Made by a program: the position numbers and the translations under genes. Shown here piece by piece: positions 4,320 to 39,432 of a DNA stretch of 64,000 nucleotides. Source of the DNA: Dehalococcoidia bacterium (GTDB lineage Bacteria > Chloroflexota > Dehalococcoidia > Lucifugimonadales > UBA3495); assembly GCA_965216425.1 (NCBI GenBank), contig CBDCFV010000004.1, positions 121,144 through 185,143 on the forward strand, given 5' to 3'. How positions within the stretch are numbered: the first letter of the stretch is position 1; every line of letters starts with the position of its first letter. The notes below the pieces were generated by a model that worked only from the letters and a program-made list of their open reading frames with translations, made no database searches and was not told the DNA's origin.

Positions 4320-4327
4320 GAGAGTTA

Positions 4328-4419: not shown

Positions 4420-4479
4420 GCTATCGGTCCGGTGAACCGGAGCCGCCCTTGTCCAGCCTTCTCCCCCTCCTTGCTGTCG

Positions 4480-4503
4480 GCACAAAACCGCGCGGTTTTG
4501 TGC
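4480..4503. promoter_or_regulatory. 24-bp perfect palindrome, candidate serine-recombinase site or operator
   Basis: GCACAAAACCGC|GCGGTTTTGTGC lies 62 nt upstream of the recombinase start. The AAAACC..GGTTTT core resembles hix/gix half-sites. Confidence 0.45.
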
Positions 4504-4564
4504 GTAGCACATGACTGACATTTCCAGCTAGCAGTTGGGTGGCACAAAAAGGTATAGTGATCGT

Positions 4565-5188: not shown

Positions 5189-5231
5189 GTCAGGAGAACT
5201 ATACGCAAGATCTAGGGAGTGAGGGGTAACC

Positions 5232-6314
5232 GTGGCAAGCCAACAGGACATCAATCAGTTGATAAAGAGGAATTTCTCTAAGCTTCTGGAGCTCGCAATC
5301 AAGCGGCCATACCGGGGGTGTTTATTCGACCCTAACTGCGGGAACACTCCCATAAACGCTCATTCGGTATCCAGGGCGATCCTGTCAAAGATACAGGATG
5401 ACGGGCATGTGATGAGGCCGTCTTCCCATATTACGCTGTCTCGAACGGGAACCCCGAAAAGGACTCTTAGTTTTCGGCGTGAAGGCATCACCCAAGCTTC
5501 AACTGGTACTTTCGCATGTCAATTCCACGACGACATGTTCAAGGCCATCGATACCACGCCAATGGACCCAAACGACCACCGAGTCCTAAATTTGATGTTT
5601 TATCGGGCCATTTTGCAGGAGACTTGGGCACTACTAAGTACACAGTCACTTACGAACGAAGTGGAGAAAGAGATCGAACTAACTACGCCGATCACAGATC
5701 GTCCGAACTCTCGATTAATGGCAATGCTAGATTCGATCTCAGCAATAAAGCCCTCCATCGATAACCCACACTGCTTTCCAGGCTCCTCTCCAATAGATCA
5801 CATCGTACGGCACATAAGAACGCCACACCCCATTATCGGAGCCTCCGCAGCGGGAGCTAGCTTAGACTTTGTCTCCGAGGAGCACACAGGGCGAACCCTG
5901 TCAATAACAGAAACTCAGTCCTTCACCGGGAAAAACCCCAATAATACCTGGACAATCACCATAGTTCCCCAACATGGTGAACACACATTGGCAATTAGCT
6001 GGGTCAAGGGTAACGGAGGAGATAAATATTTCTCACATTTTCGTGACTTGAATGGCCGGGAGCTTGAAGAGGCCGTATCGGCAGAGTTAATTGTCTTCTG
6101 CGAAAACTGGTTCCTACATCCCAAGGTTTGGAAGTCCTTCAGTAGGACCAAACAGAACGCGGTCTTGAGTTCCTACGACAATACGGATAAATTAATGAGG
6201 GGCTCATATCAATGGCATGGGAAGAAACAAAAATCCACATGGTATGATGCCATTGGAATCACCAATAGGCATCAAATAAACCTGTTCAAGTATGACGAGT
6301 CAATACTCAAGTAG
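5232..6314 (+). CDS. Hypothetical 360-aa protein, lower-GC orphan
   Basis: Long ORF with a GTG start after GGGAGTGAGGGG. Cys/His-rich N-terminus (CLFDPNCGNTPINAHSV ... GHV ... FACQFHDDMF). No family recognised. Confidence 0.6.
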   Translation: MASQQDINQLIKRNFSKLLELAIKRPYRGCLFDPNCGNTPINAHSVSRAILSKIQDDGHVMRPSSHITLSRTGTPKRTLSFRREGITQASTGTFACQFHDDMFKAIDTTPMDPNDHRVLNLMFYRAILQETWALLSTQSLTNEVEKEIELTTPITDRPNSRLMAMLDSISAIKPSIDNPHCFPGSSPIDHIVRHIRTPHPIIGASAAGASLDFVSEEHTGRTLSITETQSFTGKNPNNTWTITIVPQHGEHTLAISWVKGNGGDKYFSHFRDLNGRELEEAVSAELIVFCENWFLHPKVWKSFSRTKQNAVLSSYDNTDKLMRGSYQWHGKKQKSTWYDAIGITNRHQINLFKYDESILK

Positions 6315-19199: not shown

Positions 19200-19901
19200 T
19201 CAACAGCCCGATGCTCCACCCCAATACTCCGTCCGACGAGAATAATCCGCCACTTCCACCAATCGGCGCATCCTATCCATGGTTACCAAAACCAAGTTGT
19301 GCTGCTTTGCCGTGCTCAGGATCCAGAGGTCGTTCTCCTGAATCCCTAACTCCTTGCCCGTAGTTCGCTCAATTAAATCTTCCACCCATTTGGCCGTCAG
19401 CCTTCCGCGCCGGTCACGAGGTGAATATTTCCTGAAAAGATCTCCCCTGATTTCGCCGTAGACCTTAGCCGTATGCCGGTTAACGTCACGAACACGGTAA
19501 CTTCCCATAGCGGTTCGCACGGTTTCCTGTCTAGAAAGGACAATTTTAGGGGCTGCTGCCAATCCGTATTCCACCTCGCCGAAGGACACAACAGAAACGA
19601 AAACCAGACCGTCGCCCAGATTGTTCAATCTTCGTAAGACCGCGCCATGGCTGGGTGATCCCATATCCCACGATGAACTGGCGACGCTAGCAGGCTGCTG
19701 AAAAACTCTGAGGTCTACTCAGGACCCAAAGCTGCTCGACGATAAGCGACGCCACTGTTGTGTGTTCTGCACCATAGCTTCACACGAACTTAAATGATGA
19801 CGTATATCGGTAGGTTACTTGACGTTCCATCCATCCGCGTCTGTGCGCCTTACCTTTTTCAGCAGCCTGCTAGTGTCCAGAAGATAGCCTTCCGTGTTCA
19901 T
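19200..19901 (-). pseudogene. PIN-domain (VapC-like) nuclease gene interrupted by a MITE
   Basis: Removing the MITE at 19687..19873 joins ATG 19901 (MNTEGYLLDTS) in frame to ORF 19200..19664 (...ENDLWILSTAKQHNLVLVTMD), giving 173 codons. The start overlaps the methyltransferase stop (ATGA). Confidence 0.75.
19687..19873. mobile_element. MITE family 4 (187 bp)
   Basis: 19-nt perfect inverted ends CTAGCAGGCTGCTGAAAAA / TTTTTCAGCAGCCTGCTAG. CTAG-bounded. Confidence 0.75.
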
Positions 19902-22447
19902 CGTTCAAGCTCAGTGCCATACAAATGCGCCATGGCTTCTGTGATGGCGGGATCATCAATAGTGGGTAAACGCCTGAGAGTCGCTTCCGCCGACGCATCA
20001 CCAACCTCACCGGACTGATACTCGTGCCACGAAACAAAAGGTTTGAATGACCTCGGGAAGTACTCCCTGAAATCAACTGGGCCGGGTCGTGAATGTTCCG
20101 AGAAATGATCCAGGAGCGCCCGTTCCGTACGGGGAGCAAAATCATACGCCTTCAAAACCTCAGCATCGATCAAATGAAGCAACGCCTTGCACTCCCGCAT
20201 CCCTTCATCGCGTGAAACTGTCCCGGACAGCCATTGCCGGCGCACGCGAGAGTATTCCCGAACTATCTCCGATATGACTTCAACCTGTCCCGGCTCCACG
20301 TTAGGGACAGGTATACCGAGCAACGTTTGTCGGCGCACATCTCTCTTGCCTTCTCTCGTGGCAACGAACGCGTTGGCCACCGGGCCATTCAACACCGCCG
20401 CTAGCAATTCAACGTGCGTTGCGTCCGACGGCCAAACTCCGTGGAAATTCTGGTAACAAACAAGTCCCTCTGTGTCTACAGAAGCAGATACGGTCCAAGG
20501 CCCTCGAGTCCTGCGCCGAGCATTGACTATAACCTTCGGGTGTTCCCACTGTAACCGGTGGGCCCCGCCTTTCATGAACTGAGCTGATATGTTGAGAAAC
20601 ACGTTGGCGGTCGCCAGGAATGGTTCGAAATGGTCCCGAACGACCTGCAGGCCCGGTGCGTACCCGACTCTTGGAACAGAAGAAACCAACTGAGCACGGT
20701 TTTGGTCAAGCCTGACATTAAACTCGATCCCGCGGTGGACAGACGCGACGTCCCCCAACGTTTTCAGGTGGGTTGCGGCCTCCCAGACGTCGGACAGAGC
20801 AGGGATCCAAATGCTCGCCCCAAAGTCATTCTTTGCAGGATCGAATGGTGCCGAAGACACGTGTGACGGCTGATGCGTCTGGTAAAAATGCTGGAGGTCT
20901 TGCTTCTTCACCTCGCCGGTCGAGAGCATTCGCTTTTTGCCGGGGCGCTGGGCGGCGACCAGCAACACGGCCTCCACATCCGAATGTCGGAACACCTTGT
21001 CTGGTAAGGCAACCAGATCTATATCGGTATAGACACGGGCGACTTCCAAGCGAAGGTCGCGGTACACCCGCCCATCCACGAAAGAGCGAGGAAGGACGAA
21101 CCCCAACATCTGAGGGGGGCGCTGCAGCACCTTATTTAGGATCGCAGCCGGCTTACTTACCGGGAGCGAGTCTCCGTACTGAGCCCTTTCTGCCGATTTG
21201 AAATTTTCAAACGGAGGGTTACACAGCACGACCCGGGCCCGTTCCAGTTCGGTCTCAACAAGCTCCGAGGCCAAAGCGTCGGCTCCGTAGATGCACCATC
21301 CAGCAGGGTTGGGGTAGTCTGCCAACATCAGCGAGAGTCGGGCCACCTCCCTAGCGAAGTCGTCGATTTCAACCCCGACGAGCATCCGCTTGAAGTACTC
21401 GTGGCGCTCTTCCCTAGTCCAATCGAGGGGTAACCGTTCCTTCAAACGCCGCATCGCGGCTACGAGGAACACAGCATGACCCGCAAACGGTTCAAACACA
21501 CGGGAGTCCTGTATCTCCAAGTCTTCAAAAGGCAGTTGCCGAACGATGTACTCCGCCACATATGGTGGAGTACTGTGGACCCCGTACAGCTTGCGAGTTT
21601 TCTCGGCGACTAGGGTAGTCTCATACACATACGCGAGGGATTCAACCGAAAGGTTCTGGAAATGGAACGCCTGCTTGATCCGCTCCCAAGCAACCGACGC
21701 TGCGCCCCGATGGCTGAGGACGTCGACGTGGGAGGGCTCTTCGTAAAAATCCTGCACGGCCATCGCGGCGAGATGCGGGTCTTCATGCAACCACTCGCCA
21801 GGGTGCCCCCTATCGGCCAATACCTTAGCAGCGATAAACCTAAATAGAAGACGAAATAGTGGCGGGTAGTCGTCGTCCAGGAAAGGGGAACTCTTTTCGA
21901 ATTCTGAGATAGCCAAAGCCACCGTTTCCTGTAGGAGACGATCCAACTTTGCGCGAGCTTCTTCCTCAAGGAGCGGCAACAAACCAGCGTCGAAGAAATC
22001 TAGTTGGTAACTCGAACTGTCCCGCATCGCCTTCGCTTCGAGGATCCGGATTGGAGACCAATCGTGCTGATAACGTCGGAACAAGCCAGAGATCTGACCC
22101 GCTTCCACGCTGTCCAACAACCGTGGCTCTCCCCTTTCGGTCATCGCCCACCTGAGCAGGTGATGGTCTCGGACTTCGAAAACTTGAGGCGCCCCTAATG
22201 ACCGACAGCGAGCGACCGCTGTGGTACCGTTTCGTTCGTTGCCGAAAACTACTCCAATGCAAGCACTCCGATACGAAGGCGGGTCCTGTGCAAATGCGGC
22301 GAGATCGACCTCCTGAACCGAGTACTCGTTGGCGAGCACGTCGGCGAATTGATAATGTTCCAGTAGAAGTGCTTCCTCGTACCCTACACCAAGCAGTCCT
22401 TCCTTGACTGACCGGAACAGATCGTTATTGTCGGAACTCTTTGTCAT
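19898..22447 (-). CDS. N6-adenine DNA methyltransferase, type IIG-like architecture
   Basis: HSTPPYVAEYIV, VFEPFAGHAVFL (motif I) and LCNPPFENF (motif IV). TaqI-like target-recognition segment (LGDVASVHRGIEF). A roughly 340-aa N-terminal extension of unknown function. Confidence 0.8.
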   Translation of the reverse strand: MTKSSDNNDLFRSVKEGLLGVGYEEALLLEHYQFADVLANEYSVQEVDLAAFAQDPPSYRSACIGVVFGNERNGTTAVARCRSLGAPQVFEVRDHHLLRWAMTERGEPRLLDSVEAGQISGLFRRYQHDWSPIRILEAKAMRDSSSYQLDFFDAGLLPLLEEEARAKLDRLLQETVALAISEFEKSSPFLDDDYPPLFRLLFRFIAAKVLADRGHPGEWLHEDPHLAAMAVQDFYEEPSHVDVLSHRGAASVAWERIKQAFHFQNLSVESLAYVYETTLVAEKTRKLYGVHSTPPYVAEYIVRQLPFEDLEIQDSRVFEPFAGHAVFLVAAMRRLKERLPLDWTREERHEYFKRMLVGVEIDDFAREVARLSLMLADYPNPAGWCIYGADALASELVETELERARVVLCNPPFENFKSAERAQYGDSLPVSKPAAILNKVLQRPPQMLGFVLPRSFVDGRVYRDLRLEVARVYTDIDLVALPDKVFRHSDVEAVLLVAAQRPGKKRMLSTGEVKKQDLQHFYQTHQPSHVSSAPFDPAKNDFGASIWIPALSDVWEAATHLKTLGDVASVHRGIEFNVRLDQNRAQLVSSVPRVGYAPGLQVVRDHFEPFLATANVFLNISAQFMKGGAHRLQWEHPKVIVNARRRTRGPWTVSASVDTEGLVCYQNFHGVWPSDATHVELLAAVLNGPVANAFVATREGKRDVRRQTLLGIPVPNVEPGQVEVISEIVREYSRVRRQWLSGTVSRDEGMRECKALLHLIDAEVLKAYDFAPRTERALLDHFSEHSRPGPVDFREYFPRSFKPFVSWHEYQSGEVGDASAEATLRRLPTIDDPAITEAMAHLYGTELER

Positions 22448-22704
22448 GAACCCACCACGCCTCGGTGCCCGCCGCTGGGCTTCCTTACAGGCTTCACCCA
22501 CGCTGGACTGAACTAGGTCGACGTCGCACCGACGATGCGGCGGGCAGGACGGTCGACATGATCAAGATGCGATCGCGAACTTATATGCTATTTGAGAACG
22601 GCGTATGCGGCACAGTGTACCAAAATAACTAGGCAGTCAACGAACGCCCCATGCCTCCGAGTTTCGCCGGTAAAGCGGAATGGGCACCTCGAAAAGGTTC
22701 TCGC

Positions 22705-23540
22705 TAACTGGCCAGCAGAAATGTCACATTCAACTTATGGAGAATGTGACTTTGACGCCCAAAGAACAGACGAGACTCAAGATCCTCAACAGCTTGCTCG
22801 CAGAACACATGACACTGGATCAGGCCGCCGTTCTGATGGCTGTCAGCCCATGCCACGCCCGCCGCATCCTTGCGGCTTACCAGGAGAAAGGCTCTGCCAC
22901 CGTTGTTCACGGTCTCCGGGGCCGCAAGCCGGCCAACGCAACTCCCGAGCCCGTTGCAACCGCTGTGGTTCACCTGGCTCGCACCAGGTACGCAGGGACC
23001 AACCACACCCATCTCAGCGAGTTGCTGAGCGAGGGCGACGGCATCGACAGGACCACCCTGCGGCGCATCCTGGTCAACGCCGGCCTGAGCAGTCCGCGGC
23101 GAAGCCGTCCGCCAAAGCACCGGGTACGCCGCCAGCGTATGCCTCGGGAGGGAATGCTGATCCAGATCGACGGCAGCTATCACCGGTAGCTGGGCGAAGA
23201 CGGTCCCCAGTTCACGATACTGTTCGCGGGGGACGATGCCATCGGTACGGTGGTCGACGCCCTCTTCTGCGAGAAGGTAGACGCACACAGCTACTTCCTG
23301 CTGGTCCACGGTCTCGTGCACCACCTCGGCCTACCCTTCGCCCTCTACACCGACCGGAACGGAGTCTTCAGGCACACACCCGACTCCGGCCTCCCAGGGA
23401 GGCCGACCCAGTTCAGCCGGGCCAAGGACTGGCGCGGCGTCATGGCCAAGAGGCTGGTCTACGCTGCTTCCGATGAGCCTGCAGTGGAACAGCTTTACAG
23501 AGGCGAATTATCTTTGGTCGGAACAGGAATCAGCGGTTAG
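22705..23540 (+). pseudogene. Left part of an ISNCY-like element (transposase frameshifted and truncated)
   Basis: The end repeat TAACTGGCCAGCAGAAATGTCAC is the inverse of 18952-18974 (21/23). LTPKEQTRLKILNSLL...LIQIDGSYH, then shifted-frame pieces. Confidence 0.6.
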
Positions 23541-23553
23541 AATTTCAGTAACA

Positions 23554-25716
23554 TTATCTGGTGAGGCAACAGGACCGGCAAGACTTATTGTCGTTGATCA
23601 CAAGGTCATCCAGGAACTCGGAAACGGGCTTGACTCCGGTTACGAGCAGGTGGTCCCGGGCACGGGTACAGGCTACGTAGAGCAGGTTTCGCTCCGTGTT
23701 GTAGACCTCTTCCAAGTCCGCCTCGTCGGTTATAGACTCCACCCGGGACTGGAGGGGAATTACTTCTGAGTCGCAGGCCATGACGGCAACGGCGCGAAAC
23801 TCCAGGCCCTTTGCCAAGTGCATAGTGCCAATAGCCACGCAGCCGTCCGCCGCTTCCACATCATCATCTAGCACTGTATAAGGCAAACCGGACCGTTCGA
23901 CCGCGGCCTCCGCTCGACGAATTTGGTCTACGGACCGGACAAACACGCTGACCTCATCAGGTTGCAAGCCCTCGGAGATTCTGGCGCTGAGCCACCTGCT
24001 GACCGCATCGCACTCGGAGTCCTCATCTTCCATCACATGGATGGTGGGGAGCGGCCCGTTGAACACGGACACCGTACCCTTCCGCTCCTCCAGGTTGCCG
24101 TCAACGTCGGACATCTCCGGGTCCAAAAGACGGTCGGCGTATGTCCTTATCTGGTGGGAGGTGCGGTAGTTTATCTTCAGAGTTTGAGAGCGTCCGCGAA
24201 TCTCAACACCCAGTTCCTTCCACGAAAAGGGTTGCTGGAAGATGCGCTGGCCCAGGTTTCCGGCGAAGAACAGCCCGTTGGGTCGGCCTCCTGCCAACGC
24301 CGCCAGGAACCTCAACTGAGGGACACTCACGTCCTGGGCTTCGTCGACCACAATGTGGTCAAAGGGCGGGTGTTCCTGTTGCAGGACTCCACGGGTCAGT
24401 TGCCCGAACAACTGCGCCTTGGTCAACAGGCCTCGTTCCTGTAAACCCGACCTGACTCGCTCAAAGACGGGCCACACGGCTTTCCGTTGTGATTCCGACA
24501 ACCTGCGGTAGCGGCCGATACGGTTCACATCCCGGTAAGCTTCCCAAGTGTCCAACTGCCAGGCATCCACCACCCTGTCCCATTCGGTCAGGAGGAAAGT
24601 TGCAGAAAAATTGGTCCCTTCGATACTCGCAGATTCCTTGACCAGTGCCTCGATAATTTCCTGTCGGGCCAATGTAGCCGGACCAACCCTGGACTCGTAC
24701 ATGCACAGTGCCACGGTATCCAGCGAATCGACCGAGACTCTTCCGTTCGTCTGTAAGTCCTGGTGTACCAGCAGTTGCAGCTTGGCCTTCAACAGGTTCG
24801 CCAGCGTATCGGAGAAAGTGGTGAGCAAGACCAGTCCATCAGGGTTGGACTTGGCCAGAAATGCGGCACGATGGAGCGCCACTACGGTCTTGCCGGTGCC
24901 AGCCGAGCCGGACACCCTGGCCGACCCGTTGTAATTCCTTTCCACGATCCCCGACTGATCCGGATGCAGGAAGACAGTCCACCTCTCCCACGGGTACTCC
25001 AGGACCTCCGCCAACTCCTCGACGTTGTTCATGACGCGGAAGCGACGCAGGGCGTCGGGATGACTGAACGGGTCACCGCCTACCGTGACAGGAAGGGACG
25101 GCTGCGGCGTATTGCCCACGGCCAATGCCACCAAGGCCTCGGCTGCCTCCGCGGGCAGGTGGTCGGTCAGGTCCAGCACGCTATCCTCGATGGCTGCCCT
25201 TACGTCGTCGAGCCACTCTTCCGGCACGCCGTAGCCGAGCAGTTGCTCATCCGGGATGTGAGTGAAGACCAGCGGATTGGGCGGGGGTTCCTGCTCGACT
25301 TCCACGTATATCAGGATAGGAATTTCTCGGACTACTTCCCTTAGTTCCACCAACTGGGCGGCACCGGTGATTGGGTGAGTCTCCAACTTCCTTCGCTCGG
25401 CCCATTGATAGGCGTCATCATGGCGGCCAACGTAGCAGAGGATAACATTTTCCCCGGATCGGTGAAGGATGACGCGCAGGTCTCGGTTCACCCGGGCCGA
25501 CCAGAAGCCAGGGCCTTTGGCATCGGTCACACGGTGCAAGTTGAGACTCGGATGGGCAATGTTGGTCTGAAGGTCGAAGGCAGTGGTCTTGATAGATCTC
25601 TGCTCCTCGTTGGGGAGCCGAGCAAGGCTGGAGGTAAATGTATCGGCTATGCGGAATTGCATCGGATAAGGTCTATTTTGTGAATGGAAGATGGCATGGA
25701 CGGAAATATGATCCAT
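23554..25716 (-). CDS. SF1 UvrD/Rep-like helicase with an N-terminal RelE/ParE-like domain
   Basis: GSAGTGKTVVALHRA (Walker A), HIVVDEAQDVS, MHLAKGLEF and LLYVACTRARDHL. The first roughly 95 aa (FWSARVNRDLRVILHRSGENVILCYVGRHDDAYQWA) look RelE-fold-like. The start may be Met 25662. Confidence 0.85.
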   Translation of the reverse strand: MDHISVHAIFHSQNRPYPMQFRIADTFTSSLARLPNEEQRSIKTTAFDLQTNIAHPSLNLHRVTDAKGPGFWSARVNRDLRVILHRSGENVILCYVGRHDDAYQWAERRKLETHPITGAAQLVELREVVREIPILIYVEVEQEPPPNPLVFTHIPDEQLLGYGVPEEWLDDVRAAIEDSVLDLTDHLPAEAAEALVALAVGNTPQPSLPVTVGGDPFSHPDALRRFRVMNNVEELAEVLEYPWERWTVFLHPDQSGIVERNYNGSARVSGSAGTGKTVVALHRAAFLAKSNPDGLVLLTTFSDTLANLLKAKLQLLVHQDLQTNGRVSVDSLDTVALCMYESRVGPATLARQEIIEALVKESASIEGTNFSATFLLTEWDRVVDAWQLDTWEAYRDVNRIGRYRRLSESQRKAVWPVFERVRSGLQERGLLTKAQLFGQLTRGVLQQEHPPFDHIVVDEAQDVSVPQLRFLAALAGGRPNGLFFAGNLGQRIFQQPFSWKELGVEIRGRSQTLKINYRTSHQIRTYADRLLDPEMSDVDGNLEERKGTVSVFNGPLPTIHVMEDEDSECDAVSRWLSARISEGLQPDEVSVFVRSVDQIRRAEAAVERSGLPYTVLDDDVEAADGCVAIGTMHLAKGLEFRAVAVMACDSEVIPLQSRVESITDEADLEEVYNTERNLLYVACTRARDHLLVTGVKPVSEFLDDLVINDNKSCRSCCLTR

Positions 25717-25720
25717 TGGT

Positions 25721-25894
25721 CTAGCTGGACTTTGTACAAAGTTGGTTAGAAGCCATTAGATACAAAGGTGTGGCTATAAATCTCTTTTTCCATACTTTTT
25801 CAATGTCGGGTCCAGAGACGACATTGAAAAAATGCCCTATCTACGTGATCTTACATATGATGCACGTCAGTGGAATGTACAAAGTCGAGTCTAG
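25721..25894. mobile_element. MITE family 5 (174 bp)
   Basis: Inverted ends CTAGCTGGACTTTGTACAAAG versus the reverse complement CTAGACTCGACTTTGTACATT. Internal 13-bp stem TTTTTCAATGTCG..CGACATTGAAAAA. Shares its right CTAG with IS630-B. Confidence 0.65.
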
Positions 25895-25897
25895 TAG

Positions 25898-26554
25898 TCA
25901 GTCAACTTTGGAATCAAAAGGGTAAAGGCGGTGAAGTTTAGTCCTGGCATCCTGGGTTTTGAACCGCCAGTTGATACCCGTTCGGGCGGCGTTGCGCTCC
26001 CGCACTAACGCCTGGACTTCCCTCCCGAGAGCCTCTTCGTTGGGGAGCCGTTGCTTCAGGCAGCAGCGGGACAGTACGCTGAACTCGATTTCCGCCATGT
26101 TCAACCAACTCCCGTGCTTGGGGGTGTAGTGGAACTCCAGCCGTTTCGCAATCCTCCGGGCCTCCGCCGCCTGGAACGTCTCGTACAGCGACGCTGGGCG
26201 ATGGGTGTTCAGATTGTCCAGGACCACCCGCACCACTGTGACCTGCGGGTAGGCTTCATCCACCAGCCAGCGCATCTGATGGGCGAAGTCCTGCATCGTG
26301 CGCCGCTGGGTCACTGCCACATGCCGCCAACCCGCCAACGGCTCGCAGGCCAGGAACAGGTTTCGAGTGCCCTCCCGGCGGTACTCGTAGTCCTGCCGCA
26401 GGGGGCGCCCCGGCTCGGGTGGCAGTGGGGGCCGAGTCTCCGCCAGCAACTGGGTGGAGGTCTCGTCAAAGCAGACCACCGGCCGCTGGGGGTCATATGG
26501 CTCGGCGTACAGGTCCAGCACGTCCTCCATGTGGGCCACGAACTCGGCGCTCAC
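25898..26554 (-). CDS. IS630-B transposase orfB (DDE), -1 frame relative to orfA
   Basis: CFDETSTQL ... VVLDNLNTH ... [17 protein letters not shown]. Reading [17 protein letters not shown] needs a -1 shift on A7. Confidence 0.8.
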
Positions 26555-27042
26555 CTTGGGGATGCACCACTCCTGCTTCTGCCATGGCTTGAGAGCGTTT
26601 TTTTGAGCCGTTTACGCACTCCCTCGTGGGACATGGTGGACGCCAACCCCAGTTCCACCACCTTGCCAGCCAGCAGGCGCAGGGTCCAGTGGTCGTGGCC
26701 TTCCGGTGCCGGACTGCAGGCCAGCGCGATGAGGTGGGCTTCGCCCCGGTCGTCCAGCTTGCGGTGCCGGTTGACTTGACGCCGGTCCCACAGGGCCCCG
26801 TCCAGCCCTTCCTCGGTAAAGCGCTGCTTAATCCGGTACACGGTGCCCAGCGCCACGTCCAGGGCTTCGGCCACCTTGGGAGCGGCCCAACCATCGTTGG
26901 TCTTGAGCAAAATCCGCGCCCTGGCGGTCACTCGGGCGGAGCTTTTCCCAACCCGAATCAGATTCTGGAGTTCTTCCCGTTGTTCCGGCGCCAACCGCAC
27001 GGCGTACTTATCCCTGATCATCACCGCCACCCCCAACATCAC
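26551..27042 (-). CDS. IS630-B transposase orfA (HTH)
   Basis: [21 protein letters not shown]...TVYRIKQRF. Ends just past an A7 run (T7 on the plus strand at 26598-26604). Confidence 0.8.
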
Positions 27043-27189
27043 CGATTCATCCCCAGCAGTATACGATTATCAGCCAGTTTCCTGTATGACTTTCAACATC
27101 AAAGTTGACTGACTACTAGTTCTAGGGAGGCGCGCGAACCGAAGCCTCGGCGCCTGATCAAATTGCCGGTTACCTGCAACAGAACTGTT

Positions 27190-27651
27190 TTATGTACTTC
27201 GCCAAAGCCTTTGAATTTCTTGATGCCGTTGACCCATAAGCTGAAGTTCCTTTATGGAATCTATGGAGTCAGAAAGAATTTCCCTTGGTATACCCAAAGC
27301 ATTAACAATGCTGAGAAAAAGGATGATGGCCCCCGAGTCGATTGTTCCATCACTTTCAGAAGGAACTTCGCTTAATTCTCGAGAAACTATAAAGGTGTCG
27401 AGGGCAGTTCCAATTGGCACGGTCATATCGCTTTCCTGGTTCAAGGGTAGCCCGAAATTCGAAATGTGCTGTAGGAATTTAGTATGGTCTACAAATGGAA
27501 CTGTTCTCCAAACATTCTCGATGTTGGCCTTCAAGTAAAATGGGCCCTTAACACCCGCATCTCCGACTACGATACGATGGCGCTTAACAACACCCAATAG
27601 GAAGTCCATCAATATATTTAGATCCAAAATTCTTAGCCCTGTGTCCAACAT
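27190..27651 (-). CDS. Hypothetical 153-aa protein, lower GC
   Basis: ORF overlaps the end of the upstream AlbA_2-like gene by about 19 nt. No family recognised. Confidence 0.45.
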   Translation of the reverse strand: MLDTGLRILDLNILMDFLLGVVKRHRIVVGDAGVKGPFYLKANIENVWRTVPFVDHTKFLQHISNFGLPLNQESDMTVPIGTALDTFIVSRELSEVPSESDGTIDSGAIILFLSIVNALGIPREILSDSIDSIKELQLMGQRHQEIQRLWRST

Positions 27652-28675
27652 ATAAATTCCCGTCCATTTTCATATTCAAGCCAAATAGGGTCATCAAGAT
27701 CGATGGGGCGCATCTGAATAGGGAATGTGACAAATGAGTGGCAGTGTCTAGTACTACAACGACGCGTTATGAGAAAACACGCTCAGGTCTTCTTCTTCAG
27801 CTACTGACCGTTCATCACGGGAGACTCGCACTCGTTCGTTGCCAGCTTCAAAATCCGCCCACGAGTTACCTTGTAGGATAACGCGTCGTTGTAGTACTAG
27901 AAAAATGCCAAGTAAAGACTCGTCCGTAGGCGTCATTAGTGGAAACTTGCCTAGCAATATACCCTTCATTCGTAGAAAATACATTGTCGAAGGGAACAGT
28001 AAATCCTCGCATTGAGTTCGCAAACTCCGCGATGCGTCCACTATACCAGTGCCCCATGATTTCATATGGATCAGACATGACACTGACATGAATAAAGGGC
28101 TGGTTTTCCTCTCCTTTCGATGTCACCGGTGTCCATAGCACCCGTTCCTCGAGCCTGGACCGAGCTTCCTCCCCGCGTCGAGTCAGCAGATCGAAGGTCG
28201 ATCTATCTGTCACGGGGGTTGGCTGGGACGAATCGCCAACCCTGCGGTAAATTCGCCCATCGTTGTGGATATAGGGCGAGTTGGAGCCCTCAGGTATTTG
28301 GACTACGACTATGGATCGGCCAACTGGCAATCCTATAGCGTCTATTGGGCCTTCAAATTCCCTAACGTTGTAAAATACTGGAGGGTTTAGCAAATCTTTG
28401 GCTGAGTTTCTTATGGAATCCAATGCATCCTGCACTTGAGCTTTTGGTATTCCGGGAAAGCTAGACGCCACATTCTCCTTACTATCCTCTTTGACCCCCA
28501 AGAACAGCCATCCTCCGTATTGGTTGGCAAATGATGACAAGCTTTTCGCCAGTTCACGGTTTGCTATCAACGCCCCTTTGTATTCGGCGTACCACCCTTC
28601 ATGAACGTCCTTAAGCCGAATAAGATCTTCTGGAGGAACTTCCTGAAGATCATCCGCAAATGGTCGATATAGCAT
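27633..28675 (-). pseudogene. AlbA_2 (Schlafen-like) domain protein interrupted by a MITE
   Basis: HEGWYAEYKG...FANQYGGWLFLGV...NSPYIHNDGRIYRRVGDSS is typical of AlbA_2. Removing the MITE continues the frame (..FTWHFSRHCHSF...EFICWTQG stop at 27633). Confidence 0.6.
27748..27900 (-). mobile_element. MITE family 1, copy 3
   Basis: Exact reverse complement of 7509..7661. Confidence 0.9.
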
Positions 28676-31573: not shown

Positions 31574-31999
31574 CTATTCCCCTCCGGTGTTGGGTACAAA
31601 GGGATTGAGCAGGTCAGCGGCCAAACCCTGAACGTGCTGAATGTTTCGAGTTACCAAGATCAGATTGTGGACTTTGGCGGTGGCGGCCAACAGGCCGTCA
31701 ATCACTGGGACATTGCGGATATAGTGCATTCGGCCCCAGGTTTCGGTAATGTCGGCGTCGATTGACAAAATCCGGCCTTCGTAATTTTGCTGTACGTACC
31801 TCAGCCAATTTTCAATGACCTCAGCCTGCTTGGGGCCGCGGTCTCTAACCAGCTCGATTCCTTTGCGAATTTCGCCCAGCGTCAGTACGCTCAGAAACAG
31901 GTCATCGTCTGAAAGGCCGGTGTACCAAGCCGCCACGTTCTCGTCGCACCGGTCCCGTTTCCGCAATTCCGAGACGACGTTGGTATCGAGTAAATACAC
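31574..31999 (-). CDS. vapC: PIN-domain toxin VapC (FitB-like)
   Basis: (V)YLLDTNVVSELRK...LSVLTLGEI...IDGLLAATAKVHNLILVTRN. The GTG start shares one base with the res stop (TAGTG). The stop is 2 nt before the mod ATG. Confidence 0.9.
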   Translation of the reverse strand: MYLLDTNVVSELRKRDRCDENVAAWYTGLSDDDLFLSVLTLGEIRKGIELVRDRGPKQAEVIENWLRYVQQNYEGRILSIDADITETWGRMHYIRNVPVIDGLLAATAKVHNLILVTRNIQHVQGLAADLLNPFVPNTGGE

Positions 32000-33963
32000 T
32001 AACAGGATCCGCTGGGATCATCATACAGAAATGAAACATCGCGCCCGTAGTCTGGAGGCCGTGTCAGATCCAGGTCGTCAAAGGACGGGCCTGCCACCAG
32101 CATCTCCTTGAAGCTGAGTTTGCTGTAATCGTAGTTGGCAAAGTCTTCGGTCGACATGTTCTTGGACGAATCGATAAAATTGAGGATGGCCCGTTCCATT
32201 TCAGCCTTGATGTCATAAACATCGGTGAACTCGGCAAAGGCCCAGCGTCCGTACTGCCCCAGCGCGTTTACGCCCGGCAGCCAGTAGGCCTCCATCGTGT
32301 TCTTCTTTTCCTTGGCGTCCTCGCCCCGGTATCCCTTAATTTCGACAATGAGGTTTAGAGGATCGTCCAGACCGTCGTCCACCTGAACGATGAAGTCGGG
32401 AATGTACCTGCGAGGGGTTGAGCCGTAAAGGTAAGGGACCTCAAGTCCCAGGTTGTGGTTCTTCACGTAGGCTTTCACGTTGGGATGAGACTCCACCACC
32501 CGGCAGAACTCGGCCTCCCAGTCACTGTCCAGCACGGCCAGGTTGACGTGGCACTTGCGGGGGTCGGTGGTCCACAGGCCCGTCTTGGCAGTGGTGAAGT
32601 TGACGCGGCGAGTCGAGCCGACAGGATTGTACGAGTCCAGCAGCGCCTTGATGGACCGCTCGCCCTCCCTGCTGGTTATGGCGGCGGTGATCCGGTTGCA
32701 GGCCATATCCGCCAATGACTGGTACATGAGCTGCGCCGGATAGGTCCCGCCCCGGCAGTCCAGGCAGGTGTCCAGCCACTCCTTTACCACGCTCCGCAGC
32801 TTGCCGAACAGGTGCGTCTTCATATCCTGGTTGGGGTCGCGCCACTTGGTTTGCAGCAGTCGGGTCGTCAGGTGATACACCAGGGTCGAGGTGCGCAGAT
32901 CGCCGGTGTGCACCAGGTTCAGGTCCACGCCCTCACCGATGATGCCCTCGTTCCTGGTCTGAGTCGGCCCCACCAGGTCGGGGGTCAGGTCCAGCCGGGA
33001 GTCGCCGGTGAAGTTGGCGACCAGGTCCTCTCTGGGCGGGTCCTCCCGGTAGCCCGCCACGCGGGGGAAGGTTATCTCTAGGTGGTCGCGCTCAGGACTC
33101 ATGGCCCTGACGTGTACCGTCTGACGTGGCTTCCCCGGGCCTACCACCACCGGCCGGGCGGTGAAGTCGAAGGGTATGCCCAGCACGTCGGCGTACTCAA
33201 CGTTGAACTTGTTGTCCTCGTTCAGGTCATAGGACTGGCGCCGGAGCGCCCTCCCCACAACCTGCTCGCACAGCAACTGCGTGCCGAAGGCGCGGACGCC
33301 GAGCACATGGGTAACGGTGTTGGCATCCCACCCTTCGGTGAGCATGGACACCGAGACCACGCAGCGGATGTCTTGCCCCAGCCGACCATCCTTGCCGACG
33401 GTGTTCATCACTTCGCGGAGCAGTTCCTGGTCGGATATACTGCCGGCCTCCTCGCGGTTGCCGGTGCGTTCGATACGCTCCCGCCGGAACCGTTCTATCT
33501 GGTCGGCGGCGGCGCGGCGGAAGTCATCACTGAGCTTGTCGCCGGACTCCATTTGCTGGCTGTCGGTCAACAGGGTCCGGGGTATGGAATAACGATTGTC
33601 GTACCCGTCGAAATTGCGGAACAACTCCAGCCGTCCGTTCACCACCGAGGTTGTACCGTCCTCGTTGGTCCGCTCAAAGCCGGAGATGTAGTCGTAGACC
33701 AGCTTGGAGGTGGAGGTGTTGTTGCATACGACGATGAAACATGGTGGGCATGGGGCGCCGTCCGCCATCCACTCCTTGTACGTTTTTTCGTAATGGCCGT
33801 AGAGGGCCTGCAACGCGGTCTGCAACGGCGTCGGCAGGTCCAGCGGGTCCAGGTTGCCCGCGCGGTCCCTTCCGACCTTGGGCATGTTGCCGCGGATGTG
33901 CTCCCAGAGGTTGCGGAACACCGGCGCCTCGGTGCCGGGAATGTTGTCGGCCACCGGGACCCG

Positions 33964-35293
33964 CTGACAGGGGTATGTAACGGCTGAAATGGTCTGAAAA
34001 CTTGGAAAGCGCACGGGATTCCGGCATCTTGGTAGCAGTCACAAAACCAGGTGCCGGAGGTGTCCCATGCGCCTTCCAAGGGAATGCTACCAGATGCAGC
34101 AGGTCATTGAAACGCATCTACCTCACCTCTCCCGACCACAGTTGACCGGTCTGGTCCTGTGGGTCTGCGGGGCCATTCTCGCTGGCAGCGCCTGCCAGAA
34201 CGCCGTGGCCTCCGCCCTCTCGCCCTGGGGCGCTTGGAACAACTTCCGCCAGTATCTCCGGGAGTGGCTCTACGACGGCAGCGACCGGGCTCGTCCCTGC
34301 CAGACCGAACTGGACGTAAGCCTCTGCTTCGCCCCACTGCTCCGGTGGGTCCTTTCCTGGTGGCGTTCCGGACGGCTGGCCCTGGCCGTTGATCCCACGC
34401 TCAAAGGCGACCAAACCACCGCCATCGTCATCAGCGTGGTCTACCGGGGTTGCGCCATTCCCGTGGCCTGGCGCATCCACCGGGCCACCCAGCGCGGCTC
34501 CTGGATGGATCCCACGGTGGAACTGCTCAGGAAACTGGCCCCGGCGGTTCCCAAGGAAATGACCGTCATCGTGCTCTGCGACCGGGGCATAGCCAGTCCC
34601 AAGCTGTGGCGACAGATACGCGCTCAAGGCTGGCATCCCTACATGAGGTATCGGAAGAACGTCAGCTTCTGCGCCCAAGATGGCCGCCGGTTGCCCGCAC
34701 AGCACTTCGTTTCCCGTCCCGATACAGCTTGGATTGGCCGCGGCACCGCCTTCAGCACCCCCACCGCAAAACGCCGCTGCACCCTGCTGGCGGTCTGGTA
34801 CGTCGAGCAGGAAGAACCTTGGATCATCCTCACCGACCTGCCGCCGGAGGACGCCGGACCCAGTTGGTACGCCCTGCGCTTCTGGATCGAACTGGGCTTC
34901 AAGGCCGTCAAAAGCCTGGGCTGGAAGTGGGACAAGACCCGGCGCACCGACCCGGCGCGCGTCTCCCGCCACTGGCTGGTGCTGTCGGTGGCAACACTGC
35001 TGGCCCTGGCCTATGGCACCAGGGTGGAAGACGCCCATGACCGCAGGATTGCTCCAGGCAACCTGCGCACGCCGCCCAAGACGTCGGCTCCCAGGCGCCG
35101 CGACCCCTGGGGCAGGCCGGTACGGACCGTCAGCATCATCCGCCACGGCATTGACTGGCTGCGGCGGTTGCTGCTCCGGGGCCGCCTCTGGAGCCGGGTC
35201 TGGCTGCTGCCCGAACCCTGGCCGGAACCCAAACCAGCCCTGGAGGTCACCCGCCATGCCCCGTCCTGAAAACACCTTACATACCCCTGTCAG
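33964..35293 (+). mobile_element. IS4-family insertion sequence
   Basis: Inverted ends CTGACAGGGGTATGTAA. 11-bp target duplication ACCGGGACCCG (33953-33963 and 35294-35304). Confidence 0.85.
34067..35269 (+). CDS. IS4-family DDE transposase
   Basis: 400-aa ORF with the YALRFWIELGFKAVK (Y-R-E-K) signature and DRG/DDE spacing. Confidence 0.8.
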   Translation: MRLPRECYQMQQVIETHLPHLSRPQLTGLVLWVCGAILAGSACQNAVASALSPWGAWNNFRQYLREWLYDGSDRARPCQTELDVSLCFAPLLRWVLSWWRSGRLALAVDPTLKGDQTTAIVISVVYRGCAIPVAWRIHRATQRGSWMDPTVELLRKLAPAVPKEMTVIVLCDRGIASPKLWRQIRAQGWHPYMRYRKNVSFCAQDGRRLPAQHFVSRPDTAWIGRGTAFSTPTAKRRCTLLAVWYVEQEEPWIILTDLPPEDAGPSWYALRFWIELGFKAVKSLGWKWDKTRRTDPARVSRHWLVLSVATLLALAYGTRVEDAHDRRIAPGNLRTPPKTSAPRRRDPWGRPVRTVSIIRHGIDWLRRLLLRGRLWSRVWLLPEPWPEPKPALEVTRHAPS

Positions 35294-36369
35294 ACCGGGA
35301 CCCGGGGCAGCTTGACGATGCCGCATTCAATGGCGTCCATCAGGGAAAAGTCGCTTGCCGTCCAAGGGAACAGGGTCCCCTCGACATAACCGGAGCCCCG
35401 CAGGAAGAAGGGCGTCGCCGACAGGTCCACCACCTTCCGAACGCCCAGTTTGCGATTGACCATTTCCAGCCCGGATATCCAGACGCGGGCCTCCTCGTTG
35501 TTCCGGTCGGCTTCCTGGCGATCCTCTCTGGCCAAGGGACCCTCGTCGTCCTCCCCGGGCTTGCGGCGGTAGCAGTGATGGCCCTCGTCGTTGAAGACCA
35601 TGACGTTCTTCAGGTTCATCAGCTCCGGCATTACCCTCTGGACCATCTGGCCTTCCGATTCCTGGGTCTCAATGGGGCTGCCGGGCCCCTGCAAAAGGGC
35701 CCTGCCGCCGCTGGACATTTCCAGCCGCTCCCGGGGACGCAGTCCGTGGTAGTTGGTGATGACTATCTTGGCCCGCTGCAGGTAGGCCAGCATATCACCG
35801 GGGACCAGTTCCCGGCTGGCGTAGTAGCTGTCCGGGTCATTTGGCTGGAGCACCCGCAAACGGTCTTTGATGGTCAAGCCGGGGGTCACCACCAGGAATC
35901 CCTTGGTGAACCTTCGACTATTGGGATGCCGGACTGCGTTGATGGTCTGCCAAGCGATGATCATGGCCATGACGGTGGTCTTGCCCGCGCCGGTGGCCAG
36001 CTTCAGTGCAACCCTGGACAGTTCCGGGTTCGCCTGGCTGCTGGCGCTTTCCAGCCGCTGGAGCGCGAGTCTTTCTCCAGGCCCCAGCCTCGGGGCTACC
36101 TCGGTGAGCCATATCAGGGTCTCCACTGCCTCAACCTGGCAGAAGAAGGGGCGGTAGTGGCTGAACCTGTGGTGCCGCCAATGCTGGAGCAGCAGGGCCG
36201 TTTCCGGCGTTACCCCCCAGTTCTGCGGGTTGGGAATGCTCCGCCACTGGTCCGCGTACCGCCGGACCTCATTGACCGCCGCGGTAACGTCGTATTGCTG
36301 CTCTTCCGTGGACAGCCCTTGCCCTTCGTCAATTACAAGTTGCCCCTGCCGTTCGCCCCGGGCCCTCCC

Positions 36370-36563
36370 CTGACAGGGGTATGTATTTTATTTTGAGACT
36401 TACGCAGTTGATCGTGAGACCGGATAGTAGGTAGGCGTGCTCAGATACAAAATCGCCCCCAAATGCTTACTACCGGGCCCATTCGGTATTCCGACGTAGG
36501 CGGGAATCCAGGGGTGGCGGGACGGTTCGTAGCTATAATCTCGTTTTTACATACCCCTGTCAG
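36370..36563. mobile_element. 194-bp MITE derived from the IS4-family element
   Basis: Same inverted ends CTGACAGGGGTATGTA...TACATACCCCTGTCAG, with no ORF. 11-bp duplication CGGGCCCTCCC (36359-36369 and 36564-36574). Confidence 0.8.
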
Positions 36564-37072: not shown

Positions 37073-37855
37073 CTATTCTGCGTCGGGTTCTTCTGAAGCC
37101 TGCGGGGAAGCGTTCTCCCGGCTGCGCTTGAGCCGGTAGCTCTCGCCGTTCATCTCCAGGATGTGGACGTGGTGGGTGAGCCGGTCCAGCAGCGCTCCGG
37201 TGAGGCGTTCCGAGCCGAAGACCTCGGTCCACTCGTCGAAGGGGAGGTTGGTGGTCACCATGACGGAGCCCCGCTCGTAGCGTTGGCTGAAGACCTCGAA
37301 GAGCAGTTCCGCGCCGGTTCTGGAAAGGGGGACGAAGCCCAGCTCGTCGATGATCAGCAGGTTGAGCCGGGCCAGTTGTTTCTGCAAGTTCAGCAGGCGC
37401 CTTTCGTCCCTGGCCTCCATCATCTCATGCACCAGACCGGCGGCGGCGGTGAAACCCACAGACATCCCGCGCTGGCAGGCGGCCAGCCCCAGCCCAAGGG
37501 CCACGTGAGTCTTGCCGGTGCCGCTGTTGCCGACGGCGATGACGTTCTCCCGGCGCTGGATGTATTCACAGCGGGCCAGTTCCATCACCAGCGCCTTGTT
37601 CAGCGACGGGATTGCCGGGAAGTCGAGGGTGTCCAGACTCTTCACGGCGGGGAATCGGGCGGCGCGGATCCGCCGCTCCACCATGCGCTGGTGGCGGTCG
37701 ATGAGCTCCAGTTCCGCGAGCCTGAGCAGGTACTGGGGATGATCCACACCCTCGGCGGCGCACTGGGCGGCCATCTTACCGTACTCCCTGAGAAAGCTGG
37801 GCAGCTTCAGTTCTTTGAGATGGTGTTCCAACAGCAGCGTCGACCGGTCGTTCAT
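37073..37855 (-). CDS. istB: IS21 helper ATPase IstB
   Basis: GNSGTGKTHVALGLG (Walker A) and LLIIDELGFVP (Walker B). The ATG overlaps the istA stop (ATGA). Confidence 0.9.
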   Translation of the reverse strand: MNDRSTLLLEHHLKELKLPSFLREYGKMAAQCAAEGVDHPQYLLRLAELELIDRHQRMVERRIRAARFPAVKSLDTLDFPAIPSLNKALVMELARCEYIQRRENVIAVGNSGTGKTHVALGLGLAACQRGMSVGFTAAAGLVHEMMEARDERRLLNLQKQLARLNLLIIDELGFVPLSRTGAELLFEVFSQRYERGSVMVTTNLPFDEWTEVFGSERLTGALLDRLTHHVHILEMNGESYRLKRSRENASPQASEEPDAE

Positions 37856-39363
37856 GCCGCCCTCCCTGTGAGGAGAGCCATGTAGTCTTGTGTGGAGGTG
37901 GTGCTGACCCTGACCCGGGGCAGGTAGGGATAGAGCTCCATATCCAGCCTGGGCGGCCGCCCCTCCAGCCGGCACAGCACCAGGTGCTTCACTGCGTCAA
38001 AGCTCAGCGACCCCAGGTGGATGGCATCTTTCACCGCTGCGTGCACCTCCTGCTGGGAGAAGGTCTCCAGCAGCCTGAGCATCTGCACGTACTCCCGCTT
38101 GCCCCGCCGTCCCATGCGGGACTCCAGCAACCGCCGCAGCGTCCCGAACTCATCGGGCAGAGCCCAGCCCTGCAGCGGAGCGGCCTGGTCCAGGGCGCCC
38201 GTCTTACGCTCCAACAGCGGGAGGTAGTGGATGGGGTCGTAGACGAAGTCGTCCCGGTCGTATGATCTGGGATGGCTGGCGATGACCTCGGTTCCGCAGC
38301 TGATCACCACTGCGTCGACGTAGCCCCTTATCAGGACGTCCCGATATCCGTAGGCCACCGGCACCGGGTAGTCGTTGGCCCTGTACCTGACCAAGGACAG
38401 CGAACTCACCCGGCCAGCCTGCTTGTCGCACGCGTCGTAGGCCACCGGCGGCAGGGGCAGCAGGGCGTCCAGGTCCCGCTCCATCCTCTGGCCGATGGTC
38501 TCCGTGTGTCCCCTGAGCTGGGCGTCCATTCGTTCCAGGCAGCGCTGCTCCAGGCAGGCGTTCAGCGCATCGAAGCTTTCGAAGGACGGCACCGGCACCA
38601 GAAAGTTGCGGCGCATGTACCCCACCAGGCCTTCCACCTTGCCCTTGTCATTGCCCTTGCCGGGGCGCCCGAACCGGTCCTCGAACAGGTAGTGGGACTG
38701 GAGCTCGGTGAAGGCGCGGGTGCGCTGGCGCCGGCCGTCGCCCAGGATCCGGGCAACAGCCAGCCTGGTATTGTCGTAGAGGATGCTCTGGGGCACTCCG
38801 CCCAGAAAGGCGAGGGCTGACACGTGGCCGTCCAGGAAGGCCTCGGTAGTCTCAGCCGGGTAGGCCTTGACGAAGCAGCCGTCGCTGTGGGGCAGGTCGA
38901 TGACGAAGCAATGGGCCTTTTGCTCAACGCCGCCGATGACCACCAGGGCCTCGCCGAAGTCGCACTGGGCGTGGCCCGGCGGATGGGACAACGGCACGAA
39001 CATCTCCTTGGTCTGACGGCGATGCTCTCTTACGTAGTCCTTGACGGTGGTGTATCCGCCGTCGAACCCGTACTCGTCCCTGAGGCGCTCGAATATCCGC
39101 TTGGCCGTGTGGCGCTGCTTCCTGGGGCGCGCGAGGTCATCCTCCAGGATCAGGTCGATGACGCCGGTAAAAGGCTCCAGCTTGGGCCTTCGAGGAGGAG
39201 TCTGTCGCCGGTAGCCCGGAGGCACGGAGTAGGCCAGCATCTTGCGCACGGTGTCCCGGTGCAGCCCAAACTCTCTGGAGACCTCCCGAATGCTCTTGCC
39301 CTCCACCATCACCGCCCGGCGAACCCGCAGATATACGTCCACTCTGTACATCCATCGCACCAT
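37852..39363 (-). CDS. istA: IS21 transposase IstA
   Basis: HTH (KSIREVSREFGLHRDTVRKML), then a DDE core (QCDFGEA ... YDNTRLAV). The start is Met 39363 or 39351. Confidence 0.9.
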   Translation of the reverse strand: MVRWMYRVDVYLRVRRAVMVEGKSIREVSREFGLHRDTVRKMLAYSVPPGYRRQTPPRRPKLEPFTGVIDLILEDDLARPRKQRHTAKRIFERLRDEYGFDGGYTTVKDYVREHRRQTKEMFVPLSHPPGHAQCDFGEALVVIGGVEQKAHCFVIDLPHSDGCFVKAYPAETTEAFLDGHVSALAFLGGVPQSILYDNTRLAVARILGDGRRQRTRAFTELQSHYLFEDRFGRPGKGNDKGKVEGLVGYMRRNFLVPVPSFESFDALNACLEQRCLERMDAQLRGHTETIGQRMERDLDALLPLPPVAYDACDKQAGRVSSLSLVRYRANDYPVPVAYGYRDVLIRGYVDAVVISCGTEVIASHPRSYDRDDFVYDPIHYLPLLERKTGALDQAAPLQGWALPDEFGTLRRLLESRMGRRGKREYVQMLRLLETFSQQEVHAAVKDAIHLGSLSFDAVKHLVLCRLEGRPPRLDMELYPYLPRVRVSTTSTQDYMALLTGRAA

Positions 39364-39432
39364 CCAAGGGGTCGGATACAACCCTATGGATGGCGGCGGG
39401 CGGTCCAATTTGCAACCGCCGTTTGTCAGAGA

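Follow-up and report, generated by a model that had tools for sequence, protein, structure and literature searches.

Dehalococcoidia bacterium (assembly GCA_965216425.1) carries, on contig CBDCFV010000004.1, a type III-like restriction-modification (RM) operon in which a toxin gene, vapC, stands between the genes of the restriction subunit (res, of the BPTD_3080 family) and the methyltransferase (mod). The operon is read in the order res, vapC, mod on the minus strand of a stretch of 64,000 nucleotides (nt; positions 121,144 to 185,143 of the contig), which is called the window here; coordinates given without a locus name are those of the window. We consider the C-terminal tail of Res to be, very probably, a cis-linked antitoxin of VapC, on the grounds of its homology to free-standing antitoxins, its co-occurrence with vapC, the selection that acts on it and an asymmetry in the way in which tail and toxin are lost. 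The best explanation of the whole, which we regard as likely, is that the last ~45 residues of Res represent a VapB toxin-binding segment without a DNA-binding domain of its own, and that VapC would be kept latent on Res. The features on which this explanation turns are the following, with lengths of proteins in amino acids (aa).

32187-32002, minus strand: C-terminal extension of Res, 62 aa, composed of a variable linker, a VapB-homologous core and the terminal YDDPSGSC.
31999-31574, minus strand: vapC, encoding a 141-aa PIN toxin that begins MYLLDTNVVSE (Pfam PIN, E 1.5e-15).
31571-28752, minus strand: mod, intact, encoding a 939-aa N6/N4 DNA methyltransferase (Pfam N6_N4_Mtase, PF01555, E 1.9e-33).

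An original prediction, made from the sequence alone, had placed a canonical PIN toxin between res and mod, and both this gene and its two junctions were recovered from the raw sequence. The GTG start of vapC and the TAG stop of res have one G in common (TAGTG, 32001-31997), a gap of 2 nt separates the TAG of vapC (31576-31574) from the ATG of mod (31571), and a GGAGG motif lies within the 3′ end of vapC, ahead of mod. The list of open reading frames (ORFs) also agrees with the prediction that no separate antitoxin gene exists, because no antitoxin-like ORF was found on the minus strand of the window.

The family model of Res, NCBIfam NF046055, stops at residue 609 of the 671-aa protein encoded by the 3′ piece of res, which leaves 62 aa beyond the model. 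The core of this extension is a segment of 35 aa, DYSK-LSFKEMLVAGPSFDDLDLTRPPDYGRDVSFL, at 32026-32130. The family had been predicted to end normally at the motif GRWAF..F; however, the typical end lies mostly 22-43 aa past GRWAF, as read from 120 close Res homologues and 78 metagenomic loci, and therefore the truly extra part is ~45-50 aa. The predicted antitoxin-like segment is present within it, although the sequence quoted for it was 8 residues short and continues past VSFL with YDDPSGSC. In the alignment of the tails of close relatives, the invariant positions include L15, F17, K18, E19, M20, L21, P25, R34 and R40. Across all tail variants, only P25 and R34 are invariant, and K18, L21, L32 and R40 are at least 90% conserved. 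The linker that joins the Res core to the tail differs between loci in both length and sequence. In pooled pairwise comparisons with dS of about 1, the ratio of nonsynonymous to synonymous substitution (dN/dS) is 0.106 for a tail core of 31 codons vs 0.212 for 112 adjacent Res codons, and the tail is under strong purifying selection. An in-frame ATG at 32157 precedes the tail core in the window, but its methionine is not conserved and is missing in most homologues; therefore, the tail is probably made as one protein with Res. Profile searches of Pfam, NCBIfam and PDB revealed no DNA-binding domain in the extension.

Because direct profile searches with the tail matched nothing, the partners of VapC homologues were examined: the loci of the closest VapC relatives were fetched from 185,579 species genomes, and their upstream ORFs were read. 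In a Chloroflexi metagenome-assembled genome (MAG) with a VapC that is 60% identical (locus L015), the upstream gene encodes a free-standing protein of 72 aa, whose C-terminal 34 residues, DYSGLNFKEMLMACPIDDLDLTREPEYPRDMEL, share 65% identity with the Res tail (BLASTP E 5e-13). This 72-aa antitoxin family is conserved (52 clusters), and its members stand directly 5′ of a PIN gene that overlaps them, in surroundings without an RM system. When Res tails were aligned with 24 members of the family by hhalign, the probability was 98.4% (E 8.8e-15). Among more distant relatives of VapC, the antitoxin of Crocosphaera is a FitA-like ribbon-helix-helix (RHH) protein (PF22513), and those of Rhodopila and Legionella are PhdYeFM proteins (PF02604, TIGR01552). 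One C-terminal motif is common to VapBs of the 72-aa, FitA-like RHH and Phd/YefM types, and the Res-tail profile aligned with the Phd/YefM and FitA-like RHH types alone at a probability of 94.7% (E 6.4e-8). Judged by these alignments, the Res tail is a VapB toxin-binding module that has been grafted on Res, where Res takes the place of the DNA-binding domain. Homology to free-standing VapB C-termini thus supports the predicted VapB/Phd-type nature of the Res C-terminus.

The arrangement recurs in 16 related Chloroflexota loci, mostly from Dehalococcoidia (L002-L014, L016, L027 and L046), in which a tailed Res is encoded directly 5′ of vapC; L002 and L046 were found by routes other than the search for VapC relatives. 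The toxin gene stands between res and mod in the window, in L002-L014 and in L046, and behind the tail it is truncated in L027 only, or possibly in L016 as well. The stop of res and the start of vapC overlap by one base (TAGTG or TGATG) in all 14 junctions that were read, the window included. According to tblastn, the tail is in frame with Res in the window and in 11 loci with one continuous Res frame, and five other loci are frameshifted. Because the same layout is repeated in 16 loci, the arrangement is more than chance. Protein matches that consisted of fragments only had suggested that tailed res genes are always broken; this idea was rejected, because intact tailed Res ORFs of 1051-1113 aa are present in genome contigs. 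Simple frameshifts without insertions occur in the res genes of L001, L006, L044, L046 and L047, which could reflect either decay or homopolymer assembly errors, and frameshifted res genes of MAGs explain the many Res fragments in protein searches.

Homologous Res proteins that commonly carry the same ending without an adjacent PIN gene would speak against the tail as an antitoxin, as the original prediction had stated. In a Res-anchored sample of 80 metagenomic loci, 78 of which had an evaluable C-terminus, the tail was found in none of the 78, and none of the four PIN types searched was present there either; in most of these tail-less loci, mod follows directly 3′ of res. Tails without an intact vapC were found only in L001 (10375-10392) and L027 (6001-6255), and each of them still stands beside a 5′ stub of vapC, which we read as a toxin gene that was lost secondarily. 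None of the loci examined combines a tail-less Res with an intact vapC of this clade placed between res and mod. The tail is thus kept where vapC decays, and the converse was not observed, an asymmetry that is expected of a toxin-antitoxin (TA) pair. The fusion of the kind present in the window (type 1) is kept across Res proteins down to 57% identity and VapC proteins down to 53% identity, with dS saturated. Its age and conservation argue for a stable functional arrangement, which is not the same as proof of a coupling to restriction activity. In a search of plasmids, annotated BPTD_3080 endonucleases were matched, but the matches stop short of the tail and of vapC.

The toxin itself has the features expected of its class. 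Among solved structures it is closest to FitB of Neisseria gonorrhoeae (2H1C, E 3e-14), the core acidic residues D5, E43 and D101 are conserved, and VapC is 53-80% identical across the loci, without stops. The fourth acidic position of the PIN domain is occupied here by a histidine (TRNIQHV), and by His, Asp or Asn across the clade. This histidine was considered as an inactivating mutation peculiar to the window, which would explain why a broken res is tolerated, and was rejected in this role, because the same residue occurs in loci with an intact Res and in the free-standing pair; it speaks neither for nor against activity.

As the original prediction had claimed, res of the window is broken by two insertions, which comparison with intact relatives by tblastn resolved into an element of the IS4 family of insertion sequences (IS) and a miniature inverted-repeat transposable element (MITE). 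The order along the window is the following.

33963-32188, minus strand: res fragment 3, encoding the C-terminal helicase lobe and the PD-(D/E)XK endonuclease, to the end of the family model (NF046055 positions 390-969, E 4e-217).
33964-35293, plus strand: IS4-family element, 1330 bp, with a transposase ORF at 34067-35269 (DDE_Tnp_1 and NCBIfam IS4 transposase models).
36369-35294, minus strand: res fragment 2, encoding the part with the superfamily 2 (SF2) helicase, ResIII (NF046055 positions 118-393; residues 60-418 by tblastn).
36370-36563: MITE of 194 bp inside res, derived from the IS4-family element.
36733-36564, minus strand: res fragment 1, the N-terminal ~57 codons from the MENPFF start (NF046055 positions 1-49).

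The IS4-family element ends in perfect 17-bp inverted repeats, CTGACAGGGGTATGTAA, and has duplicated an 11-bp target, ACCGGGACCCG, which is found at 33953-33963 and 35294-35304. The MITE shares these 17-bp inverted repeats at its two ends, 36370-36386 and 36547-36563, and is bordered by a target duplication of its own, the 11-bp direct repeat GGGAGGGCCCG. The four copies of CTGACAGGGGTATGTAA in the whole window are all located at the ends of the IS and the MITE. Residues 8-64 of intact Res proteins (L003, L002 and L008) map to 36733-36563, and residues 415-1068 map to the third fragment in one frame and without stops. The helicase part has been destroyed; the 3′ piece of res, with the tail, is an open, uninterrupted frame of 671 codons, and the core of its tail is identical to the tail core of loci with an intact Res. 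This tail-bearing 3′ fragment is likely the present source of antitoxin in the window.

The RM system to which the tail belongs is placed by NCBI in a family of its own, NF046055 (BPTD_3080 family restriction endonuclease), the model of which, 970 positions long, matches res in the three pieces listed above. Res has an SF2 helicase (Pfam ResIII, E 7.8e-8) and a C-terminal PD-(D/E)XK endonuclease (Pfam RE_endonuc, E 8.2e-5, 22.8 bits vs a cut-off of 23.4), and it matches PRK15483, which models the Res of classical type III systems, only marginally (E 3e-4, 18.7 bits vs a cut-off of 564). In every locus seen, res precedes mod. Because of this gene order and the marginal match to PRK15483, the system is best called type III-like. 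As in the classical type III enzymes EcoP1I and EcoP15I, there are two subunits, a Res with an SF2 helicase and a C-terminal PD-(D/E)XK domain and a Mod that is an N6/N4 methyltransferase. In contrast, classical operons run from mod to res, and here Mod is ~940 aa long and Res belongs to the BPTD_3080 family. The mod product of the window, at 939 aa, agrees in length with those of related loci (930-947 aa).

The tails of VapB and FitA antitoxins inhibit their toxins by placing hydrophobic residues in a groove of VapC and an arginine in the acidic active site (PMC3384007). We propose that the Res tail would act in the same way. Translation of vapC would be coupled to the res stop codon through the TAGTG overlap, and the new VapC, a putative PIN RNase related to FitB, would be captured by the tail. 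The amphipathic segment FKEMLVA..F would probably lie in the VapC groove, and either R34, which is invariant and aligns with Arg68 of FitA, or R40 would probably enter the acidic active site, as in the solved VapBC and FitAB complexes. VapC would thereby be latent on Res. If the tail were no longer made, or were degraded or displaced, VapC would become free, and cleavage of RNA would lead to growth arrest or death. The binding of VapC, its inhibition by the tail and the biological role are what we infer from these comparisons, and comparative evidence of this kind supports the predicted tie between VapC neutralisation and the restriction subunit. As to the role, a back-up device similar to the anticodon nuclease PrrC, which would fire upon loss of the restriction enzyme or an attack on it and would also make res addictive to the cell, is plausible, and we place it somewhat below an even chance.

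Several observations weigh against this explanation. The profile searches of the tail against antitoxin families that had been suggested at the outset, carried out in Pfam, NCBIfam and PDB with a profile of 7 sequences, matched nothing, because the models there are confined to the DNA-binding domains at the N-termini of antitoxins. An end-to-end alignment of FitA with the tail is weak (E 0.011, probability 3.9%); it is in this alignment that the invariant R34 of the tail falls on Arg68 of FitA. An AlphaFold2 model of the last 329 Res residues, built from a 36-sequence alignment, is of low confidence (mean predicted local distance difference test score 47.9) and merely hints at a helix over FKEMLVA. 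A scan for promoters and terminators and an inspection of the IS-res junction revealed no convincing start or promoter for the 3′ res fragment in the window. Furthermore, many related res genes in long-read MAGs are frameshifted, either by real decay or by assembly error, and the association data do not separate a guardian role from plain addiction or from an evolutionary by-product. When the 53-aa tail was compared by HMMER with all of 1.84 billion cluster representatives, only 7 matches were returned; this result is not informative, since the clusters are formed at 50% identity and Res proteins with the tail are probably represented in them by tail-less members.

The tail is not the only antitoxin-like sequence associated with the gap between res and mod. 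Three cassettes stand there in L003 (6001-8030), the closest relative of the window, in the following order.

L003, cassette 1: the Res tail and VapC.
L003, cassette 2: a free 120-aa protein and a 137-aa PIN protein.
L003, cassette 3: a free 110-aa protein and a 123-aa PIN protein.

The free 110-aa antitoxin ends with AAKWLADAGGSAPDLEDIPRRRSE, an ending that Res carries as a fusion in L047 (6001-7496) and P0022, where it is followed by the cognate PIN protein at 65% identity. The free protein of 120-139 aa has a Res-fused counterpart in L129 (4475-6032) and P0015 (49% identity, E 4e-18), which is also followed by the cognate PIN protein (61% identity). Three putative TA families thus each occur with a free and with a Res-fused antitoxin. 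In L044, a closely related Res (87% identical) has no tail and is followed by complete two-gene TA cassettes, and in P0011 the type-1 tail is fused onward to a second antitoxin. To judge by the content of these loci, a hotspot for cassettes lies between res and mod. We tentatively extend the explanation to the family as a whole: Res proteins may be platforms on which PIN RNases are held latent by fused tails, an arrangement on which three unrelated TA families would have converged, and release upon inactivation, degradation or titration of Res by phage, or upon loss of res, would shut the cell down. We regard this wider claim as possible, but less likely than not.

Other observations concern the same gap. 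The further PIN TA families are also represented between res and mod in L001 (10375-11204). In the gap of the tail-less members L048-L127, genes of the DUF4062/HATPase_c_4/Fic-like_C (Schlafen-like) type, Bro-N genes, GmrSD_N nuclease genes and AAA_21/AAA_15 ABC ATPase genes are often found. The cassette array of L002 (9448-12000) contains the first 108 nt of mod three times (9998, 10945 and 11889), and a segment of 139 nt with the 3′ end of the tail and the 5′ stub of vapC is present twice; P0007 is a chimeric ORF that joins the N-terminus of mod to the end of the tail. The repeats of L002 and the chimera suggest that cassettes are exchanged by recombination in conserved flanks. A different Res extension, 161-169 aa past GRWAF, is found in L052 (about 4300-5454), L108, L125, L126 and P0104. 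It is followed by an ORF of 203-218 aa, the start of which overlaps the res stop (3 nt upstream of its last base), and neither the extension nor its partner ORF has a Pfam match; the partner may be another effector that is held by a Res extension.

The fusion might instead be a by-product of survivorship. Where cassettes are shuffled and deleted, the deletion of the 5′ part of an antitoxin gene would be viable only if the toxin-binding 3′ part were left in frame with res. The tail would then work, with no functional link to restriction, and neutralisation would simply borrow the expression of res. The arrays of several TA cassettes between res and mod (L003, L044 and L002), the repetition in L002 of the mod 5′ end and of the tail with the vapC 5′ stub, which points to recombination in the flanks, the existence of three TA families in both free and Res-fused form, and the onward fusion in P0011 are all consistent with this account. 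However, the type-1 fusion is old and stable (Res 57%, VapC 53%, dS saturated, dN/dS 0.11), and a mere accident would be expected to yield to the free two-gene form more often. We therefore entertain this account as a minority possibility of some weight; it concerns origin and role only and agrees that the tail is an antitoxin. It would also be conceivable that the tail is made as a separate small antitoxin, by internal initiation, with the ATG at 32157 as one candidate start, or by proteolysis, so that Res would be its carrier at the DNA level only. An in-frame ATG does stand ahead of the tail in the window, and a linker that varies in length and sequence is what a cleavable or flexible linker would look like. 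Nevertheless, the methionine is missing in most homologues, no in-frame start is conserved between GRWAF and the core, and no Shine-Dalgarno-like sequence lies 5′ of 32157, all of which speaks against internal initiation. Cleavage after translation may still occur, but overall we regard separate production as improbable.

Two further accounts depart more strongly from a latent VapC, and we regard each of them as very improbable. If the tail were a decayed remnant, the fossil of a former vapB beside an inactive VapC, the break of res would be readily tolerated, and the histidine in the fourth acidic PIN position, the state of res as a pseudogene in the window and the truncation of vapC in some relatives would fit. 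Against decay, the tail core is more constrained than the adjacent Res core (dN/dS 0.106 vs 0.212), VapC keeps D5, E43 and D101 at 53-80% identity and without stops, and the histidine variant also occurs together with an intact Res and in a free-standing pair. If, alternatively, the tail served to recruit VapC, it would dock an active toxin on the restriction complex as an effector, which might cut phage RNA at the restriction site. In favour of recruitment stand only the physical tethering that the fusion implies and the other nucleases that are embedded between res and mod in the same family (GmrSD and ABC ATPase systems). However, the tail is homologous to inhibitory antitoxin segments that block the active site by an arginine (PMC3384007), and the arginine position is invariant here.

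Among the prokaryotic modules that are addictive or suicidal, RM and TA systems are the two classic ones, and both are found together in defence islands. Demonstrations of a direct molecular link between the two are rare, and PrrC/EcoprrI is the textbook case. The guardian of an RM system is an established concept, and PrrC, an anticodon nuclease encoded in a type Ic RM operon, has been summarised elsewhere (PMC12707154; PMC1484252). The present operon resembles EcoprrI in that the gene of a toxic RNase lies inside an RM operon and the RNase is presumably latent by means of the restriction enzyme. However, the RM system is type III-like, of the BPTD_3080 family, rather than type Ic, the toxin is a PIN protein rather than an ABC-ATPase anticodon nuclease, and the antitoxin tail is covalently fused, whereas PrrC associates non-covalently as a whole protein. 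Moreover, latency on Res is deduced here from the fused tail, and any activation by a phage anti-restriction factor is hypothetical here.

Compared with VapBC and FitAB, the likenesses are a PIN toxin with FitB as the closest solved relative, a putative neutralising segment homologous to VapB tails (of the Phd/YefM, the FitA-like RHH and the unclassified 72-aa types), and an antitoxin coding sequence that lies upstream and whose stop overlaps the toxin start. The differences are that neither an antitoxin gene nor a DNA-binding domain is found here, and that the tail ends a restriction subunit of ~1070 aa. Feedback on the operon by a repressor complex of antitoxin and toxin, as is usual in such systems, could not operate, and the supply and the stability of the antitoxin would be tied to Res. 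According to a survey of PIN domains published in 2017, type I RM operons can contain PIN genes, in some cases with no antitoxin that could be recognised; the missing antitoxin was left unexplained, and no TA system had been shown to interact directly with an RM system as of then (PMC5499597). In the present operon, by contrast, the missing antitoxin can be located, as a candidate, in the in-frame tail of Res. No mention of an antitoxin fused to a restriction subunit was found in the open-access literature searched, including work on embedded defence genes (bioRxiv 10.1101/2024.01.29.577857) and an RM review of 2025 (PMC12707154), and such an absence is no proof. The components and the logic are known (TA modules of the VapBC type, type III-like RM systems and the likeness to PrrC/EcoprrI); the covalent fusion of antitoxin and Res, and its recurrence, appear to be undescribed.

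Defence genes embedded in RM, BREX and Hma loci have been described, and a gap between res and mod that holds GmrSD, ABC ATPase, Schlafen-like and Bro-N genes fits this idea (bioRxiv 10.1101/2024.01.29.577857). In the window, the operon is itself surrounded by an IS-riddled defence island (19898-28675 and 37073-39408), with the following members.

19898-22501: MmeI-like methyltransferase.
23554-25716: UvrD-like helicase.
25898-27042: IS630-like element.
27866-28675: Schlafen AlbA_2 protein.
37073-39408: IS21 istB/istA.

The proposal is open to experiment with modest means, for which a peptide of 45 residues, a toxin of 141 aa and a single deletion construct would suffice. Further cases could be found by a simple rule, namely to look for defence proteins that are extended at the C-terminus and whose gene is followed by a toxin gene that overlaps it; three TA families in this Res family already conform to the rule. 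More generally, the segments by which antitoxins bind their toxins would be modules that can be transferred to large proteins unrelated to them. If the explanation is true, this would be the first case in which the physical tie of an RM enzyme to a TA toxin is directly visible in the sequence, and the fused tail would provide these bacteria both with a built-in second line of defence and with an addiction device for the restriction gene.

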